Positions 37,166-44,816 of a stretch of 64,000 nucleotides of DNA are shown one piece after another. This stretch comes from Candidatus Nomurabacteria bacterium. Its GTDB lineage: Bacteria > Patescibacteriota > Minisyncoccia > Phycocordibacterales > UBA918. The notes beneath the pieces were generated by a model. That model was not told the origin of the DNA, did not search any database, and saw only the letters and a program-made list of their open reading frames with translations. A program made the translations under genes and the position numbers. Numbering within the stretch: position 1 is the first letter of the stretch; every line of letters begins with the position of its first letter. The stretch is from NCBI GenBank assembly GCA_020632095.1, contig JACKGF010000001.1, positions 134,549-198,548 of the forward strand. Direction: 5' to 3'.

Positions 37166-39655
37166 ATGAAAATAATAAATTTGCATAAATTTTGTTTGAC
37201 TACATTTTTTTTCATAGCTCTACTACTAACCTCCTTTGTACACAAAACTTTAGCTGCGCCACTGCTTGATTCAGTTTATGGTGGTTCAGGCTGGTCAATG
37301 CCACAATCGGAGTATATTGGTGTAGACAGTGATACCTGTGGATCATCAGCAACAGTAGGGCAGATACAGCTGGTTGAAGAAAATAGTAATACTCTTGTTT
37401 TAACTCCCCCTACCTGGACTATTACTGTTAAAGATAGTTCCGGAGTGGAAACCTATAGCTGGACTGGGGTTGATACTAGTGTATCACCAAAGTTTTGCTA
37501 CCAATTGTCAAGTGATTACATAAAGGTAGACTCATCTGAAACGGTTGAATATTTTGCTCATGCTGGTGAATTTGTAAAAACAAATGTCGGCGAACCTGCT
37601 GATTATTATGGTCAATTATATTTAGGAAGAGTTCATCTTCGTAGTAGATCAAAAGAATTAAATAATATTTCTCCTCTATATCCAGAGAGTACCAGCTACA
37701 ACAGTAGTCCAGGATACATTATTAACACAAACCAAATAGCTAATATTTACGGTGCTTCAGAGCGACACACTATCAAACACACAGTGCTAGATATTAGTGA
37801 TCTTACGGAAACTACGAGAAATATTAGTTCTTCAGGTACATCTGGCTTGGAGATGCTACCTGCAGTTGCATTGCCTGATGGTCGTTACGTTTGGTATTTT
37901 TCAATGACTCTTGATGGGAATGTAGAAATTTCTGATAATCTACATTTAAGTAGTGATGTACCTACATCAGGCATTACCACTGCGGTTCCTTTTATTATCG
38001 ATACCGCCCCACCTATTGTGAGCGTTGATTTAGAGCTGATAAGTGTGGTTGATGGAAAGGCAAATGTTACTATTTCAAATTCGATACAAGACAAATTATC
38101 GGGAACATTATCATCTACTATATACCTACAAGAAGTAACCCCAGGAAGCTCTTGGTCAAATACTTCTGTTGGATTAATTAATGGTTCCAATGATAAACAG
38201 ACAGTAAGTATTAATTATGAATTAACATCAGGTACTAGCTACCAATACTTTGCAGTATCAACTGATGTGGCAGGGAATGTCGCAACGTCAACAGTAATGA
38301 ATTTTACAGCTCCAGCTGTCATGCCAGTAAACCCAATAGTTAAGATCTCATCACCTGAACCAACTGACCTACCTTCAGAATTCAACATAGACTATGACAC
38401 GCTAAACAATATTAATTTTGTAGGGGAAGGTATCGATGCTCTGTATGTATCATGGGAATGGCGGATGAATGACTGTAACAGTGGCCCTGTTTACAGTAGT
38501 TCAAGGACTTTTTCAACTAGTACAACGAATAATACTATTACACCTGATGCTGACGCTGTTGCTAGTCGGATATACTTAAGAGCTAAAGATAGTGATGTTG
38601 GGGTATGGTCAACAAACTGTCCTTATATAGACATTAAAATTAATTGTCCAGTATATGAGTCGTGGAGTGGTATGGCTTGTGTTCCTGATATTTCTATGTA
38701 TCCCGACCTTGTAAGTCATAATTTCATGGTGTCTGAAGGACCGTACCAGAAAAACGATACAGTTTCACTCGTGTCAAATGTAAAAAATATAGGTGCTACA
38801 GATTCGATACTTCTTTCATCAAGTAATTTCTCATATAGTTGGGACACTGGCGAGACATGGACTAACTTTGGTGCAAATGGATTTCATGGGTCTATCCCTG
38901 TTGGCGCTTTTGACTCAGTAGACGAAATCTTCACGCTAGAACAAGCTGGCACTCTTATGTTAAAACATTGTGTAGACATTAATAATACAATTGATGAAGG
39001 TCCGCTCGGTGAGTCACCTAACTGTTCAACCATAGGTCCAATCACAGTTACTGAGTTACCAGAAGCTGAACTTAGTGGATACGGTTGCACGGTTGGAGAT
39101 TCAGGAACGGATAGCAGTTGTAGTGGACGTTTGTCATGGAGCTTTAATAACGCTGATCTGGCTTACATCTACAATCTAACAACTAACACTACTTATTCTA
39201 CCGACCTTACAGGAACAAATTTTATCGCATTGCTGCAATATGGTCCGAATGTTATACAGGCTAGGAATGATGATGCGACTACGGTTCCTGAAGTTCTTAA
39301 ACAAATTACACTTAACGCCTCTTGTGATACAGACGTTAATTTCTGGGACGGAGTTCAATGTGGTCCGTTACCAGATATTGACATCTCAGCTATCCCAACA
39401 ACAATTAGAGCAGGAAAATCAACGGTTATCAAGATAGGTATAACATCAGATTATGACTTCGACTGCAGTATGTACGGTTTTGAAACTTCACCAATTGTAT
39501 TTTCTCACACAGCTAGTCCAGTAGTTCAGTATTATGAATATCCAACTTCGGAACTGTATTCAGCTCAAATTATTCAAATTTCATGTGATGTACTTGGAAA
39601 TGTTGTTGATGTAAATACTAGGATAGATATTATTGGAAGTCCTTACGAATCTTGA
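37166..39655 (+). CDS. large secreted Ser/Thr-rich protein (probable Ig-like/fibronectin-like beta domains), unknown function
   Basis: 829 aa. Signal peptide LTTFFFIALLLTSFVHKTLAAP. No TM elsewhere. Multiple Cys pairs and S/T/N-rich beta composition. No catalytic motif recognised. Confidence 0.55.
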   Translation: MKIINLHKFCLTTFFFIALLLTSFVHKTLAAPLLDSVYGGSGWSMPQSEYIGVDSDTCGSSATVGQIQLVEENSNTLVLTPPTWTITVKDSSGVETYSWTGVDTSVSPKFCYQLSSDYIKVDSSETVEYFAHAGEFVKTNVGEPADYYGQLYLGRVHLRSRSKELNNISPLYPESTSYNSSPGYIINTNQIANIYGASERHTIKHTVLDISDLTETTRNISSSGTSGLEMLPAVALPDGRYVWYFSMTLDGNVEISDNLHLSSDVPTSGITTAVPFIIDTAPPIVSVDLELISVVDGKANVTISNSIQDKLSGTLSSTIYLQEVTPGSSWSNTSVGLINGSNDKQTVSINYELTSGTSYQYFAVSTDVAGNVATSTVMNFTAPAVMPVNPIVKISSPEPTDLPSEFNIDYDTLNNINFVGEGIDALYVSWEWRMNDCNSGPVYSSSRTFSTSTTNNTITPDADAVASRIYLRAKDSDVGVWSTNCPYIDIKINCPVYESWSGMACVPDISMYPDLVSHNFMVSEGPYQKNDTVSLVSNVKNIGATDSILLSSSNFSYSWDTGETWTNFGANGFHGSIPVGAFDSVDEIFTLEQAGTLMLKHCVDINNTIDEGPLGESPNCSTIGPITVTELPEAELSGYGCTVGDSGTDSSCSGRLSWSFNNADLAYIYNLTTNTTYSTDLTGTNFIALLQYGPNVIQARNDDATTVPEVLKQITLNASCDTDVNFWDGVQCGPLPDIDISAIPTTIRAGKSTVIKIGITSDYDFDCSMYGFETSPIVFSHTASPVVQYYEYPTSELYSAQIIQISCDVLGNVVDVNTRIDIIGSPYES

Positions 39656-40680: not shown

Positions 40681-40709
40681 TTGACTTAGAAGCCTTAGAG
40701 CCTTATTAT
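40681..40709 (+). promoter_or_regulatory. candidate sigma70-like promoter for tRNA-Ala(TGC): TTGACT-17 nt-TATTAT
   Basis: TTGACT at 40681-86 and TATTAT at 40704-09, ~40 nt upstream of the tRNA. Confidence 0.4.
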
Positions 40710-40751
40710 GGTGCGCACCTGAGGTAATATTTAGGTGTTCCATTTTAGAAT

Positions 40752-40824
40752 GGGCTCGTAGCTCAGCTGGTAGAGCGCCTCATTTGCACTGAGGAGGTAG
40801 CGGGTTCAAGTCCTGTCGAGTCCA
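40752..40824 (+). tRNA. tRNA-Ala (anticodon TGC), CCA not encoded
   Basis: 73-nt cloverleaf folded by hand: acceptor GGGCUCG/CGAGUCC with G3:U70 (Ala identity), D-arm GCUC-AGCUGGUA-GAGC, anticodon stem CCUCA/UGAGG, loop UUUGCAC, T-arm GCGGG-UUCAAGU-CCUGU, discriminator A. Confidence 0.85.
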
Positions 40825-41020
40825 CAAAAACCAAAACCAAAGCGGATGCTTTGGTTTTGTTGTTTTTGTGAGACATCGACAGGACTTGAAAGACGGAGGC
40901 TGCGAAGCCAGTTTTGAGGTACGAGAAACTGTAGCCGAGTCGGGGTAGCGAACACTTAGTAGATTATGAGCGAAGCGAAGTAATATACTTAGTGATTCGT
41001 GACCAAGTCCTGTCGAGTCC
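40825..41020 (+). other. tRNA-Ala(TGC) 3'-linked element: terminator hairpin, inverted copy of the tRNA 3' end, conserved ~70-nt block, and direct repeat of the tRNA 3' end
   Basis: Hairpin CCAAAGC-ggat-GCTTTGG + T-run (40837-40868). CATCGACAGGACTTGAA (40874-90) is the reverse complement of tRNA nt 55-71. The block 40935-41003 is ~90% identical to 41551-41616. AAGTCCTGTCGAGTCC at 41005-41020 exactly repeats tRNA nt 57-72 (40808-40823). Confidence 0.55.
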
Positions 41021-41063
41021 TGCACACATACCATCCCTCTCAATCTTTTGTTACAATTCCAAC

Positions 41064-41339
41064 ATGACAAAAGAAGAATTACTTCACATTAACCCAAACG
41101 AAATACTTCTACTAGATATTCGCACAGACGATGAGGTAAAAGCCATTCCGTGTATTGATTCAGCACAACATATGCCAATGCGAACGGTTATTAATGAAGT
41201 GAATAGCGGAGAACTACCAAAAGATAAAAAAATAGTCACGATTTGTCACAGTGGCGGTCGTTGTATGATGTTGCATCAGTTCCTACTAGAACACGGATAC
41301 CAAGCAGACTATCTAGAAGGTGGAATAATGTCTCTATAG
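41064..41339 (+). CDS. single-domain rhodanese-like sulfurtransferase
   Basis: ATG 41064 gives 91 aa. The active-site loop CHSGGRCM (Cys-x-x-Gly-x-Arg) and LLLDIRTDDE fit single-domain rhodanese (GlpE/PspE-like). The ORF track start 40992 lies inside the upstream element. Confidence 0.7.
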   Translation: MTKEELLHINPNEILLLDIRTDDEVKAIPCIDSAQHMPMRTVINEVNSGELPKDKKIVTICHSGGRCMMLHQFLLEHGYQADYLEGGIMSL

Positions 41340-41387
41340 CAAGAGTTAGCTGTTTGATTATTTTATGATAAAATCTCACTCACTACT

Positions 41388-41460
41388 GGGCCCTTAGCTC
41401 ATCCGGTAGAGCGCTTCCATGGCATGGAAGAGGCGAGCGGTTCAAGTCCGCTAGGGTCCA
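41388..41460 (+). tRNA. tRNA-Ala (anticodon GGC), CCA not encoded
   Basis: 73-nt cloverleaf: acceptor GGGCCCU/AGGGUCC with G3:U70, anticodon stem CUUCC/GGAAG, loop AUGGCAU, T-arm AGCGG-UUCAAGU-CCGCU, discriminator A. Confidence 0.85.
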
Positions 41461-41630
41461 CAAGCGTTAAGAAATCCTGCCCTGCGGCAGGATTTTAGCT
41501 TGTGGAAGGCGGAGCGTTGTGAGGAGCGCGCTTCCTAGCGCGACGAGCCGCGAGCCGGGGTCGAGAACACTTAGTAGATTACGAGCGTAAGCGAAGTAAT
41601 ATACTTAGTGATTCGTGTCCACAAGCGTTA
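41461..41630 (+). other. tRNA-Ala(GGC) 3'-linked element, same organisation as 40825..41020
   Basis: Hairpin AATCCTGCC-ctgc-GGCAGGATT + TTTT (41473-97). CTTGTGGA (41499-41506) is an inverted copy of the tRNA 3' end/downstream TCCACAAG. The block 41551-41616 (CGAGCCGGGGTCGAGAACACTTAGTAGATTACGAGCGTAAGCGAAGTAATATACTTAGTGATTCGTG) is shared with element 1. GTCCACAAGCGTTA at 41617-30 is a direct repeat of 41456-69. A perfect 18-bp palindrome GTAAACAACCACCGGCCC/GGGCCGGTGGTTGTTTAC (shared central C) follows at 41631-41665. Confidence 0.55.
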
Positions 41631-41774
41631 GTAAACAACCACCGGCCTTAGGGCCGGTGGTTGTTTACTAAGTAGTTATAATTCAGACTTCAAATACTGT
41701 TACTTAAACTGAGAACCAATCAGATAAATATGATATCATAAAAACAATTATCAAAATCATTAGTTTAAGAGCTT

Positions 41775-44700
41775 ATGCATGAAGCGGCAAAAGTAAATTC
41801 CTTTAGAGAACCCAAAAATCAGTCTGGAAATTTTGAACCTAAAATTCTAGATGGGAATGAAGGTTATACTAATGAGCCGGCTGCAAACGATGATGGGGCT
41901 TTTGATGAACCTCAAGAGAGAAAACTGGTCGTAGCTACTGATAACGGTGATGTGACACCTGAATATCAAAATCGTGTTGATAACATACCAGATACACCAG
42001 CTGCTAGTTCAATCAATGATCTGAGGCAGCAACTTGATAATATAAATTACCAAGCAGGTCAAGGATTGATGGATGACGATGAAGCTTCTAGGATTACTGC
42101 TGATTTAGAAAAACAGCTTTATGAACTAGAGTTAAAGCAATCTGATTCAGAACTTGATAGTGACGTGAATAATGTTCCTGTGTCAGGAAGTCTGGATACG
42201 GCTGGAAATGAACAAGCATCAGGCTCTACTGAGGAAGTCTTACTAGCACCAGCTTCTGAAGCAGTTGAAGAAGAAAAAAGCGCATTTGAATTAAGGCGAG
42301 AGTTCAACGCGGCTCGCGACAATTATCACGCTACGTTGGAAACATCGTACAAGAATCGCTCAATGTTCAGTCGCTCGTTTAACTGGGTGAAAGATAAAGG
42401 AAGCCAGGTAGTAGATGTTTTTAGAGAAGATAAACCTGGGTCGGTAGATAGTGAACAAACACAGATTAAAAAACCACTCCCTGGTGAATCTTTGAGTAAA
42501 GAAGCACAAGAGTATTACAATAACCTACCTTTCTGGAGACGTGTTTTTGGACCAAAGCGAGATGAAATGAACCCGGATGTGCTTGCCGCAAAGGAAAATT
42601 TTGATGCTAAAAATCAAGCTTTGTATGAGTACAAAAAGAAGAATGTTTACCCTGGTGTAATGCAAAAGGGACTTGAGAAGGGTTACGATATTTCTTTTGG
42701 AATTGCAAATCGACATGTACTCAGACCAGCAGGACAAAGACAAGAGTTGCAAAGTGCCCATCTACCTGAAAATCTCAAAAACGCAAAGGATCGCTTGGGT
42801 CAGTTCATGCAGAACCACAGAAAGAAAGTGTTAGCTGCAACATTTATGATTTCTGCCCTAAACCCGCTTAGAGCAGGTGCTGTTTTGACAGCAGGAATGA
42901 TTGGTAAACTCTATATCAAATCAAAAGCTGACGCCGAGGCAGCCAACAAAAAAGAGATTGTTGGCGGTATTATGGCTGACCATTCCGGGAGATTAGTAGA
43001 GCTTGAAAATGCCTACTATAAAGACCTTCGTGCTTTAAAAGCAGCTCAAATAAGAACTAGGATTGCTGTTGGTGCCACTGGTTTGGTGGCTGGAGGTTCG
43101 ATTGGTGCTGAAGCTTATGCTGATGTTTCTAGTTATGTAAATAAGTTGACCGATGGAGCAGGCATTAATGGTGCAATAGATGGAATTTCTGATGCAATAG
43201 ATAAATTCAGTGGTGGAGACGGTGGGGGTGGGGGAGAGGGGGGAGGAATTAACTCTTGGTCAGGCAAAATTAGCGCTGTTGCTGATTCTGCTCCAGATAC
43301 ACCTGAAGCTGAGGTAATTAACCCAGATTTTGATAATAATGTTCTTAGACAACAGACGGAAGCTGAGATTGAACACCAATTAAGAGAATTGGCACCTTCA
43401 GAGCAGATTGAAAGTGTCGTTAAAGTCGATCCGCTTGATTCGTCTATTGGGCCTAAAGATGCATTTAATATAGACAAACCATCACTTGATACTGGAGTTG
43501 ACTTAAGCCCTAAAGAAGGTTTAGATCAGCAACTCTCAGCTGAACATGTTAGTCCAACGGAAAGTCTTAGTCCTGAAAAAATTGTTCATCACGTAGAAAG
43601 GGGTCAAAATCTTTCGACTGAATTTAGTGATAAGGTCAGGGAGTTGACTGATACACAAGACTACCGATTGCCACCAGGTGTTAGCAGGGACGAGATAGTT
43701 CACAAGATGTACCAAACCTTTCCTGAGATGACTAAGGCTCATGGTGTTCCACCAGCTTGGACTCCTCAAGACTGGAGAGACGTCGGTGTCTCTAGTGGTA
43801 ACCCAAATCTAATCTATCCGACTGATAACATAAATATGAGCGCCATGATGGCAAAAATGGGTGTTCTTCCAAACTCTTCAGGTATTGACGTTTCTTCTGC
43901 AGCTGACAGCGCATTTTCTGGCCACCATCAACCTGTGCACGTTGCACCTCACAGCGCAGTCTCTCATCAATCTTTGGAAGCAATATCCAACCTAAACAAA
44001 AGACCACTTGATTTTGATCATTTAATGAAGGGTCCGGAGGTGTTTGACCTAAACTATACTGGACAAGAGCAAGTTCCTGATAATCTTCCATCTGATGATG
44101 CAATGTTTTCAGGTTCTGAGAAATCTGGGGCATATGACGCGGAAAAGGCTAAATATGATAGTTTTAGAGAAGCTGGAGCAAGTGTTGAAACAAATTACCC
44201 ACCTAAGCCAGTTAGTGATGGTGTACCATACTCTCCGCGTGAAACATCTACAGAAACAGCAGGTGTTCCAGACAGAGAAATAAAACATTTTAACGTTAGT
44301 AATGATGGTCATGAAGTTACCAAAAGTACATATAGTGTTAGAACGAACGTTGATGGTAGCACAGGTAATGTAAGTGGATCATATAGTCATCAAACTGGCA
44401 GATTGGTTGAAGGGACGGATAATTTTTTTCCAGATACTGGTGCAATGACACAAAACGGTCAGGTTATAGTTTCTGAGCCTTACGCAAATATCGAGTATAG
44501 AGCCACGAGTGCAGCTGATTTCAATCAAGAACTAAGCAAGGTCGTGTACGAAGGACATAAGTCAGGTGACTTGAGAATACTAAACAACGAAACTGGCAAG
44601 GAAATAGCTACCTTAGGAGATTCTGTAGCCTACGTGAAATCAAGACTGGATGATTTAATGTCTCCCAAAGATGGTGAGCCACCTCTACTTTCTCCAGAAG

Positions 44701-44816
44701 TCCTTAAACAATATGGAATTACTGATGGTGAATTTGCAAAAGTGAAAGAAGGAGATGTTGTGGACATGGGAGGTATTGTGAAGGAAATATTAAAAGTACG
44801 CACACCATTACCATAA
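41775..44816 (+). CDS. large (1013 aa) acidic hypothetical protein with internal hydrophobic segments and Gly-rich tract
   Basis: No signal peptide. Low-complexity acidic N-terminal third. Two hydrophobic stretches (VLAATFMISALNPLRAGAVLTAGMIG; IAVGATGLVAGGSIGAEAYA) and GGDGGGGGEGGG. No catalytic motif recognised. Confidence 0.5.
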   Translation: MHEAAKVNSFREPKNQSGNFEPKILDGNEGYTNEPAANDDGAFDEPQERKLVVATDNGDVTPEYQNRVDNIPDTPAASSINDLRQQLDNINYQAGQGLMDDDEASRITADLEKQLYELELKQSDSELDSDVNNVPVSGSLDTAGNEQASGSTEEVLLAPASEAVEEEKSAFELRREFNAARDNYHATLETSYKNRSMFSRSFNWVKDKGSQVVDVFREDKPGSVDSEQTQIKKPLPGESLSKEAQEYYNNLPFWRRVFGPKRDEMNPDVLAAKENFDAKNQALYEYKKKNVYPGVMQKGLEKGYDISFGIANRHVLRPAGQRQELQSAHLPENLKNAKDRLGQFMQNHRKKVLAATFMISALNPLRAGAVLTAGMIGKLYIKSKADAEAANKKEIVGGIMADHSGRLVELENAYYKDLRALKAAQIRTRIAVGATGLVAGGSIGAEAYADVSSYVNKLTDGAGINGAIDGISDAIDKFSGGDGGGGGEGGGINSWSGKISAVADSAPDTPEAEVINPDFDNNVLRQQTEAEIEHQLRELAPSEQIESVVKVDPLDSSIGPKDAFNIDKPSLDTGVDLSPKEGLDQQLSAEHVSPTESLSPEKIVHHVERGQNLSTEFSDKVRELTDTQDYRLPPGVSRDEIVHKMYQTFPEMTKAHGVPPAWTPQDWRDVGVSSGNPNLIYPTDNINMSAMMAKMGVLPNSSGIDVSSAADSAFSGHHQPVHVAPHSAVSHQSLEAISNLNKRPLDFDHLMKGPEVFDLNYTGQEQVPDNLPSDDAMFSGSEKSGAYDAEKAKYDSFREAGASVETNYPPKPVSDGVPYSPRETSTETAGVPDREIKHFNVSNDGHEVTKSTYSVRTNVDGSTGNVSGSYSHQTGRLVEGTDNFFPDTGAMTQNGQVIVSEPYANIEYRATSAADFNQELSKVVYEGHKSGDLRILNNETGKEIATLGDSVAYVKSRLDDLMSPKDGEPPLLSPEVLKQYGITDGEFAKVKEGDVVDMGGIVKEILKVRTPLP

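Follow-up and report, generated by a model that had tools for sequence, protein, structure and literature searches.

Two elements, E1 and E2, which lie behind the tRNA-Ala(TGC) and tRNA-Ala(GGC) genes of the window (the whole 64-kb stretch of DNA that was analysed), are members of an undescribed family of small, protein-less, structured elements located at tRNA 3′ ends in Parcubacteria-type (CPR) bacteria of the Patescibacteria. Literature searches returned no description of such elements. Within each element, the tRNA 3′ end is present in inverted form (a′) and pairs there with a downstream direct copy of the same end (a), which closes a conserved three-way junction on the tRNA-sense strand, and the element therefore seems, as modelled, to act as a folded single strand and not as a classical double-stranded attP. 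The family appears to represent a novel, miniaturised mode of insertion into tRNA genes. As regards the mechanism, we infer that E1 (about 40826-41020) and E2 (about 41462-41630) are non-autonomous insertion cassettes of 150-205 bp with a folded-strand site that mimics the tRNA 3′ end and is served by a recombinase acting in trans, a reading to which we assign a probability of about 0.4.

Architecture of the two elements

The four-part arrangement described in the original prediction, consisting of a terminator hairpin, a′, a structured body and the direct copy a, was confirmed behind both tRNA-Ala genes, and all features of the two elements lie on the forward strand. tRNA-Ala(TGC), identified by ARAGORN and Rfam at 40752-40825 with no encoded CCA, is preceded by a promoter-like site, TTGACT-17-TATTAT (40681-40709). 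The pattern TTGACTT...TATTAT together with the leader GTGCGCAC recurs in the related loci L025, L031 and L034, and no comparable site was found upstream of E1 or E2. The tRNA end at 40807-40823 is the left copy of an exact direct repeat, CAAGTCCTGTCGAGTCC, whose right copy at 41004-41020 starts at tRNA position C56 and forms the 3′ strand of the closing stem P1; this repeat measures 17 nt, one base more than originally noted. It is followed by the hairpin hp1 (40823-40868, arms 40823-40843 and 40848-40868), an A-tract/T-tract intrinsic terminator, and by a′ (40865-40890), an inverted copy of the tRNA T-loop and T-stem which forms the 5′ strand of P1. The complementarity of a′ is exact over 15 nt (40876-40890, TCGACAGGACTTGAA) and amounts to 81% over an extended 26 nt (40865-40890 versus 40805-40830); there is no match between its outer part, GAGACAT, and the Ala acceptor, and the orthologous site in L031 has an identical a′. 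Taken together, a, hp1 and a′ form a single 86-nt hairpin (40805-40890) with −39.9 kcal/mol under DNA parameters and z = −13.9. The junction with P2 (40891-40945) contains the P2 strands GAC (40892-40894, 5′) and GTC (40939-40941, 3′), which covary across family members, the conserved motifs GGAG (40895-40898), CGA (40936-40938) and GGGG (40942-40945), and a variable hairpin (40899-40935). It leads into P3 (40945-41003, 90.2 bits), a long imperfect hairpin with an apical GCGAAGC mini-hairpin and a GTGAC end.

E2 follows tRNA-Ala(GGC) (41388-41461, ARAGORN and Rfam) in the same order. Its direct repeat, GTCCACAAGCGTTA, is exact over 14 nt, with the left copy at 41456-41469 comprising the last 6 nt of the tRNA and 8 nt of trailer and the right copy at 41617-41630, of which 41618-41626 is the 3′ strand of P1. 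The terminator-like hairpin hp1, AAATCCTGCC/GGCAGGATTT followed by TTTTA (41472-41495), nests within a longer hairpin (41457-41506) and has a near-identical copy in L001. The inverted copy a′ (GCTTGTGGA, 41498-41506), the 5′ strand of P1, is the complement of TCCACAAGC; both inverted copies had been recognised before, and that of E2, with 9 nt, is one base longer than predicted. The junction with P2 (41507-41560) consists of the P2 strands GGC (41508-41510) and GCC (41554-41556), the motifs GGAG (41511-41514), CGA (41551-41553) and GGGG (41557-41560), and a variable hairpin (41515-41550); P3 (41560-41619, 86 bits) carries the apical loop GCGTAAGC. When the 685 nt downstream are shuffled, chance repeats of either kind reach a mean maximum length of 7.3-7.9 nt.

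E2 is followed by a palindrome (41628-41671) which is perfect, as had been reported, with 20-bp arms (41628-41647 and 41652-41671) and a 4-nt loop instead of 18 bp around a shared central C. It is most simply interpreted as the displaced original terminator of tRNA-Ala(GGC), in analogy to strong terminators behind the last a in L007, L021 and L025. Rfam matches of the palindrome to psRNA14, SurA and miRNA families were discarded as sub-threshold hairpin noise. If the two sites were empty, the junctions of tRNA-Ala and right flank would read ...GAGTCC|TGCACACAT and ...GCGTTA|GTAAACAACC.

Distribution of the family and agreement with the local tRNA

The block shared by E1 and E2 has no further copy in the window. 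A search of related genomes had been suggested in the original prediction, and the block was found in other genomes, each time 3′ of a tRNA gene; tRNA-Ala loci lacking the element exist as well, namely tRNA-Ala(GGC) in L003 and L004. One metagenome match and four Patescibacteria MAG matches to the apical motif are each located just 3′ of a tRNA gene and on the tRNA strand. The data set comprises at least about 20 units from about 10 genomes, with two types of body: type W consists of P2 and P3, as in E1 and E2, and type S is a different body with the motif ACUGAA...CUGUAAG. Copies occur behind tRNA-Leu in L021, behind tRNA-Ala(TGC) at the orthologous Ddl-linked site of two genus-level relatives (L025-30 and L031), and in L007 and L014. 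With Ala, Gly, Glu, Val, Ser and Leu among the host tRNAs, the miniature non-autonomous element, one of three candidates originally put forward and the best supported of them, is not specific to tRNA-Ala.

In every unit the tRNA 3′ end (a) is followed by the terminator hairpin, then by a′, the structured body and once more a; units often stand in tandem, and a′ and a always match the local tRNA, even between nearly identical bodies. P3 is 91.5% identical between E1 and E2, yet each a′/a pair fits its own tRNA, and two units in L016 have identical stretches of 37 nt and 24 nt in common and differ in a and a′ exactly where the two tRNA-Ser genes differ. Since a′ is exactly complementary to the tRNA 3′ strand (e.g., A opposite U where the L016 tRNA has G-U) and to the trailer as well, it does not copy the tRNA 5′ half, and the trailer bases show that the template was the gene or a precursor and not the mature CCA-ended tRNA. 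In the window and its relatives, direct repeats measure 13-27 nt and inverted repeats 9-22 nt, as opposed to about 7.5 nt in shuffles; across units, direct-repeat length varies from 6 to 27 nt, and the right-hand a in L001, L013 and L014 is merely a generic CCACAA or CACAUAAA. Six W units are full-length and copy the T arm (E1, L007_W1, L007_W2, L021, L025 and L031). They represent four different tRNA sequences, and in all six the inner repeat boundary lies at T-loop C56, which is also where the partial copies of L003 and L018 start. Several outer a copies in arrays are decayed. In L007(+), decay has gone further in the a of the proximal unit than in that of the distal unit, which does not fit a simple rule that the newest unit lies next to the tRNA.

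The pattern of a, hairpin, a′ and a could also arise with no horizontal or transpositional mobility. In this case replication would switch templates locally at the palindromic T-loop (TTCGAA) and the hairpin of the terminator, uniformity would be maintained by gene conversion together with hairpin-templated correction, and bodies would spread between tRNA loci only by ordinary homologous recombination through conserved T-loop sequences. The near-perfect long palindrome of a, hairpin and a′ centred on the terminator loop fits this proposal, as do the self-complementary hexamer TTCGAA at the inner repeat boundary of S-type units, the partial matching in E1 and L031, where only the T-arm part of a′ matches, and the lack of an associated enzyme gene. 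However, homologous bodies stand behind at least seven tRNA species in about ten genomes, and the shared segments in L016 are flanked by the tRNA-specific part of a′ on one side and that of a on the other, so that conversion tracts would have to stop at tRNA-specific positions at both ends. Template switching also leaves unexplained why the body is conserved as a covarying three-way junction and why each unit has its own terminator, and we consider it very unlikely.

Strain turnover and site occupancy

L018 is 96.5% identical to the window over the rhodanese region. At the E1 site it shares a and the flank with the window but has another body joined to them, and it diverges straight after GTCCAC of tRNA-Ala(GGC), a tRNA that carries G68A in this strain. 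The Ddl-tRNA-Ala(TGC) locus is occupied in all three complete orthologous loci, across a Ddl identity of about 75%; no empty site was found among the complete contigs, and the remaining contigs end inside the tRNA. This full occupancy could mean that the element has a host function.

Three-way junction and its conservation

The block common to both sites had been correctly recognised in the original prediction; it extends over 40936-41005 and 41551-41621, with 91.5% identity, and corresponds to P3, which forms a three-way junction together with the 3-bp P2 and the a′/a stem P1. The “internal direct repeat” read in this block, ACTTAGTAGATT and ACTTAGTGATTC, turned out to be the two arms of the imperfect P3 hairpin; ACTTAGT is nearly self-complementary. 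The junction is predicted under RNA and DNA parameters alike, with z from −3.5 to −6.0. Across the family alignment 93.8% of the cells are paired and 12 of the 25 pairs change on both sides, a result that none of 500 shuffles reached, and slid controls pair at 44% at most; P2 alone occurs as GAC/GTC, GGC/GCC, GCC/GGC, ACC/GGT and AGC/GCT. The sense strand folds more stably than the antisense strand in 16 of the 17 units and hairpins tested (equal in one), and there are about 49 G-U pairs on the sense strand versus about 13 on the antisense strand. A strain SNP in P3 (L019) retains a sense-strand U-G pair. The bias of G-U pairs towards the sense strand is, like the purine-rich internal loops, at least as compatible with RNA as with ssDNA.

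The main rival to insertion cassettes, which we regard as rather unlikely and which corresponds to the small structured RNA among the three original candidates, is that the units encode structured non-coding RNAs expressed from the tRNA promoters by terminator read-through, with P2 and P3 carrying the function. Because the a′/a closing stem copies the acceptor/T-stem helix, RNase P and RNase Z could excise such an RNA, or a tRNA-recognising protein could bind it. Consistent with this are the position of the units, always directly downstream on the tRNA strand, the better folding of the sense strand, which holds the G-U pairs, the compensatory changes, the unpaired motifs GGAG, CGA and GGGG, conserved like RNA internal loops, the filled tRNA-Ala(TGC) site in three genus-level relatives, and the strong terminator that often follows the last unit. 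On the other hand, an intrinsic terminator stands ahead of each unit, which has no promoter-like site of its own, and read-through would yield a transcript whose a′ pairs with the tRNA’s own 3′ end (the 86-nt hairpin with −39.9 kcal/mol under DNA parameters). Bodies are swapped between close strains, arrays are heterogeneous and many copies are decayed, features not usual in an RNA gene of the host. An acceptor-like closing stem is missing from E2-like units, an exact match to the neighbouring tRNA is observed that would not be needed for a processing signal, and no Rfam family matches.

The same base changes bear on a further candidate of the original prediction, decayed att scars. The sites would then be inert attL/attR remnants of integrase islands or prophages whose interior was deleted, and the block would once have been a P arm bearing the arm-binding sites of an integrase. 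The direct repeats run in classic fashion from the T-loop to the tRNA 3′ end (PMC4383910), the L031 locus, in which a partial W body and a third a copy follow an MgtC gene, indicates that the repeats can bracket a gene, and a restriction-modification module adjoins the L013 array. However, about 20 units have the same compact architecture of 150-205 bp and none contains an integrase fragment, a′ is not part of a classical attP, and the compensatory changes keep an intra-strand pairing that double-stranded protein-binding arms do not require. Given this conserved architecture and the compensatory base changes, an origin as scars is highly improbable.

Search for encoded enzymes and known element classes

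With 150-205 bp, the units are too small for any ORF. Pfam searches detected no integrase, transposase or reverse transcriptase (RT) in 38 of the 42 window ORFs of at least 150 aa and a 91-aa rhodanese ORF, nor among the ORFs flanking units in L007 and L013-L016. In Rfam 15, searched with the region and 12 related loci and with permissive E-values included, only tRNA passes, and genome contigs searched with an exact 20-mer gave no matches. A phage origin was rejected after the apical-motif search of viral contigs found nothing, and a tmRNA or degenerate tRNA gene was rejected as neither ARAGORN nor Rfam called the units. A guide RNA of the TnpB/IscB type, composed of a scaffold and a flanking guide, was dismissed because a gene for a nuclease is lacking, E1 and E2 do not agree in their putative target-adjacent motifs, and mismatches would fall within the seed in E1; moreover, IS200/IS605 elements are not expected to show direct repeats. 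Although a closing stem is present, a retron msr-msd was rejected with no RT nearby. An origin from a group II intron or by other RT-based means was rejected likewise, and the template shown by the trailer bases in a′ also speaks against RT-based origins; in 95 complete Patescibacteria genomes, no RTs of group II introns were detected (PMC13011429). An integron attC was excluded, as RYYYAAC is missing at the 5′ side of E1 and E2 and GTTAGTA and GTTAAGA, which come closest at the 3′ side, do not conform to the GTTRRRY consensus. Of the further matches to the apical hairpin, those from cyanobacteria and Melioribacteraceae (L008-L012) are unrelated MITE-like repeats without a tRNA and that of L017 lies in a coding region; they were left out of the family because independent matches are about as many as chance predicts (about 4).

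Proposed insertion mechanism and its implications

In the insertion-cassette reading, a unit would enter by site-specific recombination within the segment from the T-loop to the tRNA’s 3′ end, with a repeat that begins at C56 for body type W and would span only the last bases and the trailer for E2-like units. With a new terminator of its own and a tRNA 3′ end as replacement, the incoming unit would keep the tRNA functional, and the old 3′ end would be pushed downstream, giving rise to the direct repeat. The recombination site of the cassette would be a folded single strand instead of a duplex attP, in which the a′/a stem may rebuild a double-stranded copy of the target. This stem would be capped by the junction, with its GGAG/CGA purine loop and P3 with a mini-hairpin of the GCGAAGC type, which a recombinase or an accessory protein, encoded elsewhere, would presumably use as a handle. 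The match of a′ and a to the selected tRNA sequence is probably maintained by hairpin-templated correction. More tentatively, and with considerable doubt, the units may represent a new CPR class of protein-less “hairpin cassettes” which integrate as a folded single strand, with the target-copy stem as a double-stranded decoy and the junction recruiting the recombinase in trans; the MgtC gene in L031 suggests occasional gene capture between the repeats, which would fit such cassettes. If this holds true, they extend the principle of structure-defined single-stranded sites known from attC and CTX to tRNA genes and to elements of 150-200 nt.

If the units are mobile, they would be among the smallest site-specific insertion elements known and the first whose attachment site forms when a copy of a tRNA gene’s 3′ end folds. 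They would provide a testable model of non-coding cassettes that parasitise tRNA-targeting recombinases and retarget to new tRNAs, and of tRNA loci as hot spots of variation in very small CPR genomes. If they are RNAs instead, they constitute a new and fairly widespread class of tRNA-linked structured RNAs; to our knowledge, almost no RNA biology has been described in this phylum. In practical terms, the units explain short-read assembly breaks at tRNA genes in these organisms and can mislead the annotation of tRNAs and island boundaries.

Comparison with known systems

Like tRNA 3′-trailer small RNAs and tRNA-like processing modules, the units adjoin a tRNA at its 3′ side and share its strand, and the closing stem of long-form units reproduces the acceptor/T-stem helix. 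They differ in the terminator-like hairpin with a T-run between tRNA and unit, in a 5′ strand that is antisense to the tRNA, and in their strain-level replacement. With MITEs, REPINs and BIMEs they have in common that they are small, non-coding and hairpin-forming, build modular mosaic arrays in extragenic DNA by terminators and cause short-read assembly breaks. However, the terminal inverted repeats of the units copy the local tRNA and are not element-specific, a′ and a differ between all units, the repeat length of 6-27 nt goes along with no fixed target-site duplication, and the units are strictly confined in position and orientation to the 3′ side of tRNA genes, with only two copies in 64 kb.

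An identity block from the tRNA T-loop to the 3′ end is the normal footprint of tyrosine integrases (PMC4383910, PMC1762012). With tRNA-targeting tyrosine integrase islands and prophages, such as mycobacteriophage Ms6 at the T-loop of tRNA-Ala, the units share this block, the tandem accretion at one tRNA, and a regenerated tRNA and displaced 3′ fragment as marks of the two ends. In contrast to these, they are 100-fold smaller, contain no integrase, and have an extra inverted target copy and intra-strand covariation.

The integrated topology of CTX phage with its folded ssDNA attP(+) has been described (PMC3442271), and the resemblance to such CTX-type IMEX, which rely on XerC and dif, lies in the inverted target-like copies roughly 90-130 nt apart with a stem that mimics the target, in the integrated order of target, cargo, inverted target, spacer and regenerated target, in the tandem arrays, and in a recombinase encoded outside the element, which is proposed for the units. 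The units differ in that they target tRNA 3′ ends and not a dif site recombined by XerC/XerD, are gene-free with 150-205 bp (no Rep, no phage genes), and have a conserved three-way junction as spacer. Integron attC sites, which act as folded single strands, and CALIN arrays likewise consist of non-coding imperfect palindromes with a folding strand bias, have a variable branched terminal structure and occur in arrays without a nearby integrase. The units, however, are without the R″/R′ cores (RYYYAAC/GTTRRRY), are attached to tRNA genes, and have only a terminator hairpin as cargo between the sites; conservation resides in the centre of the units, and their arms change according to the target, whereas in attC it is the reverse.

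Downstream elements of the two tRNA-Ala genes

The window contains tRNA-Ala(TGC) at 40752-40825 and tRNA-Ala(GGC) at 41388-41461, both found with ARAGORN and Rfam and neither encoding the CCA, and both loci follow a common order of tRNA, terminator-like hairpin, inverted copy of the tRNA 3' end (a'), about 115 nt, and direct copy of the tRNA 3' end (a). In element 1 (E1), behind tRNA-Ala(TGC), the hairpin with its A-tract and T-tract lies at 40823-40868, a' at 40865-40890 (exact over 40876-40890), and a is an exact 17-nt direct repeat (40807-40823 = 41004-41020). Behind tRNA-Ala(GGC), the hairpin of element 2 (E2), likewise with A-tract and T-tract, spans 41472-41495, followed by a' at 41498-41506 and an exact 14-nt direct repeat (41456-41469 = 41617-41630). 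With small corrections of coordinates, the original prediction of a repeat-bracketed element downstream of each gene stands, the repeats of 17 and 14 nt comparing with a longest direct or inverted match to the tRNA end of about 7.5 nt on average in shuffled downstream sequence. The two sites have a 70-nt block in common with 91.5% identity, and no further copies of it occur in the 64-kb window.

The locus is surrounded by Ddl, a 91-aa rhodanese and housekeeping genes, and no integrase, transposase or reverse transcriptase (RT) was found in the rhodanese and the 38 of 42 window ORFs of at least 150 aa that were scanned. The flanking ORFs at 41775-44816 (1013 aa) and 37166-39655 (829 aa) are without a Pfam match and many other window ORFs could likewise not be annotated, which is typical of CPR genomes. 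Because the Ddl homologues are labelled Kaiserbacteria, Parcubacteria, Pacebacteria and Nomurabacteria, the window can be ascribed to a Parcubacteria-type CPR bacterium. Upstream of tRNA-Ala(TGC), the region at 40681-40751 is conserved in the related loci L025 (3975-4052), L031 (3470-3632) and L034 (3470-3556) and comprises TTGACTT-N17-TATTAT, then GTGCGCAC and a sequence-variable leader hairpin (40715-40738 in the window). An RT-based origin of the elements is unlikely, as no RT was found among the scanned ORFs and trailer bases are copied, not CCA; complete Patescibacteria genomes, moreover, yielded no group II introns (PMC13011429).

Fold of the elements

E1 and E2 each fold into the same three-way junction with RNA and DNA parameters (z -3.5 to -6.0), and no Rfam family matches either of them. 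The predicted closing stem P1, formed by a' and the downstream a, comprises 13 bp in E1 and 9 bp in E2, while the predicted 3-bp helix P2 surrounds a variable hairpin and is flanked by conserved unpaired bases, GGAG on the 5' side and CGA...GGGG on the 3' side. The 70-nt block forms P3, a long imperfect hairpin with a GCGAAGC-type mini-hairpin at its tip, and what had been read as an internal direct repeat (ACTTAGT...) represents the two arms of this hairpin. The tRNA's own 3' end is a predicted alternative partner of a', and 40805-40890, terminator included, forms a single 86-nt hairpin (-39.9 kcal/mol, z = -13.9). A perfect 20-bp palindrome following E2 (41628-41671) appears to be the original terminator in displaced position; in L007, L021 and L025 the last a has a strong terminator behind it.

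In nine aligned units of the W type, the body type of E1 and E2, 93.8% of the cells are paired and in 12 of the 25 pairs both partners have changed, a level attained by none of 500 shuffles, with slid controls pairing at no more than 44%, in a test based on few, related sequences and on a structure derived from one of them. P2 occurs as GAC/GTC, GGC/GCC, GCC/GGC, ACC/GGT and AGC/GCT. The sense strand folds more stably than the antisense strand in 16 of 17 units and hairpins and equally in the remaining one, G-U pairs number about 49 on the sense and about 13 on the antisense strand, and in a strain of 99.6% identity a single SNP changes a U-A pair of P3 to U-G on the sense strand. From these comparisons we infer that the structure is selected, and on the tRNA-sense strand. 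The uniform compact fold is a poor fit to inert att scars, an explanation that we regard as very improbable.

Distribution behind tRNA genes

Copies of the conserved block were found in other genomes, again behind tRNA genes. A search with an exact 20-mer led to one further metagenome contig, L001, with tRNA-Ala(GGC) and an element in an unrelated gene context. A degenerate apical-loop pattern located the motif just 3' of tRNA-Gly, tRNA-Glu and tRNA-Val in Patescibacteria MAGs (L007, L013, L014), in a tandem unit array on a MAG contig without a called tRNA (L015), and behind tRNA-Ser on a contig binned as Acidimicrobiales (L016), on the tRNA strand in every such locus with a called tRNA. Protein neighbours led to a copy with a 27-nt repeat behind tRNA-Leu (L021) and to further copies in L003 and, behind a truncated tRNA, in L007, and two relatives with about 75% Ddl identity (L025-L030 and L031) carry copies at the orthologous Ddl-tRNA-Ala(TGC) site. 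Contrary to what had been proposed, the family is thus not specific to tRNA-Ala; tRNA-Ala genes without an element also exist, namely tRNA-Ala(GGC) in L003 and L004. A covariance model of P3 recovered all family copies (51-91 bits) and, over 206 kb, nothing elsewhere except a partial copy in L031. The family is real, and no description of it appears in Rfam or in the literature that was searched. Purely local template switching with gene conversion would explain the palindromes, yet leaves covarying bodies shared behind at least seven tRNA species unexplained and appears improbable.

W units (P2 and P3) often stand in tandem behind one tRNA with units of the S type, which have a different body with an ACUGAA...CUGUAAG motif. 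S-type units keep the frame of a' and a, a' often containing an additional hairpin, and have as their body one covarying hairpin with the conserved (U)ACUGAAC.UGUAAG motif behind it. They usually adjoin the tRNA, W units standing at a greater distance, and occur in L016 (4700-6700, minus strand), L015, L007 (2830-2990 and 4790-4670) and L014 (2875-3040).

Several of these loci have further peculiarities. In L031 (GCA_964351645.1, CAYGOP010000032.1, 4042-4680), a partial E1-like body (P2a-P3, 51.5 bits) lies behind an MgtC-family gene, some 0.9 kb further on than tRNA-Ala(TGC) and the W unit of that tRNA. The body has no a' but precedes a third copy of CAAGTCCTGTCGAGTCC, and copies of the tRNA 3' end in direct orientation thus stand on both sides of a protein-coding gene. 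The tRNA-Ser at 5784-5871 of L016 (minus strand; Rfam tRNA 57.9 bits) has the anticodon ACT according to ARAGORN, A34 being unusual in bacterial tRNA-Ser. Directly after the element-free tRNA-Ala(GGC) of L003, a tRNA-like sequence (1933-2010), whose acceptor-like stem has 9 bp and whose T-arm reads GGTTCAAGTCC, received no ARAGORN call; it is possibly a tRNA of unusual form or with an intron. Adjoining the two-unit array behind tRNA-Glu, L013 600-3460 encodes an XRE-type HTH protein, an MvaI/BcnI-family restriction endonuclease and a LexA/S24-DNA methylase fusion, perhaps a mobile restriction-modification module flanking the tRNA. Unrelated MITE-like repeats in Nostocales (L008-L011, with the terminal inverted repeat AGGACTTACGCA) and Melioribacteraceae (L012) carry an identical apical hairpin, GATTAC-GAGCGAAGCGA[AC]-GTAATC, which includes the GCGAAGC mini-hairpin; these repeats have no tRNA nearby and no Rfam match, and the number of independent matches is about that expected by chance.

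Correspondence with the local tRNA and turnover

The units behind two different tRNA-Ser genes in L016 agree perfectly over 37 and 24 nt of their interior, while their a and a' differ exactly where the two tRNA genes differ; similarly, E1 and E2 have P3 in common, yet each is closed by its own tRNA's sequence. The repeat starts at T-loop C56 in all six full-length W units that copy the T-arm, covering four different tRNA sequences, and also in partial copies in L003 and L018. In the long-form units, a' spans T-loop, T-stem, acceptor strand and trailer, reaches up to 22-23 nt and is sometimes interrupted by a conserved inserted hairpin. E2-like units (E2, L001, L013, L014) use only the last tRNA bases and the trailer, and in three of the four the right-hand a is merely a generic CCACAA-like end.

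L018, with 96.5% identity over the rhodanese region, carries a different, L003/L025-like body at the E1 site, connected to the a and the flank that the window also has. In its tRNA-Ala(GGC) region divergence begins straight after GTCCAC, and G68A in the acceptor strand (position 541) creates a C5-A68 mismatch exactly where the trailer switches. Several arrays contain decayed outer copies of a. Many short-read contigs from different samples stop within or a few bases from these tRNAs or inside the P3 block (L018, L019, L023, L024, L032-L035), which fits assembly breaks at repeated sequences; the tRNA-Ala(TGC) of L034 and L035 encodes CCA, unlike that of the window. An element is present at each of the three complete Ddl-tRNA-Ala(TGC) loci, which counts against simple parasitism, and because the odd outer a' sequence GAGACAT of E1 also occurs in L031, occupation of this site is old. 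Such old occupancy, together with the unit orientation, the G-U bias and purine-rich loops, would suit a tRNA-linked structured RNA arising from terminator read-through; terminators upstream of the units, the lack of promoters, the antisense a' and swapping at strain level speak against it, leaving it a doubtful alternative.

Proposed mechanism and comparison with known systems

Of the three explanations offered by the original prediction, a miniature element is best supported, with its attachment site and tRNA range revised. We tentatively propose, at a probability of about 0.4, that the units are non-autonomous cassettes; their putative mechanism is inferred in all its steps. The a'/a stem would be a folded single-strand mimic of the tRNA gene end and act as the attachment site, recombined by a factor acting in trans. 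Each unit would supply a new terminator, so that the tRNA would still be expressed and a' remain untranscribed, and hairpin-templated correction would hold a and a' to the selected tRNA sequence. The rising GC skew in the window suggests that the plus strand is the lagging-strand template and transiently single-stranded. The extent of the direct repeats is as expected for recombination in the tRNA T-loop or 3' end, in which the tRNA is regenerated and the fragment displaced (PMC4383910); Ms6, for instance, recombines at the tRNA-Ala T-loop (PMC1762012).

A classical double-stranded attP would leave a', the intra-strand covariation, the size of 150-205 bp and the missing integrase unexplained. 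Single-stranded sites defined by structure, as proposed for the units, have one precedent in the attC sites of integrons. The other is the CTX phage, in which recombination of dif with the folded single-stranded attP(+), followed by fixation through replication, leaves the same order of target, short cargo, inverted target, structured spacer and target that the units show and also yields tandem arrays (PMC3442271).
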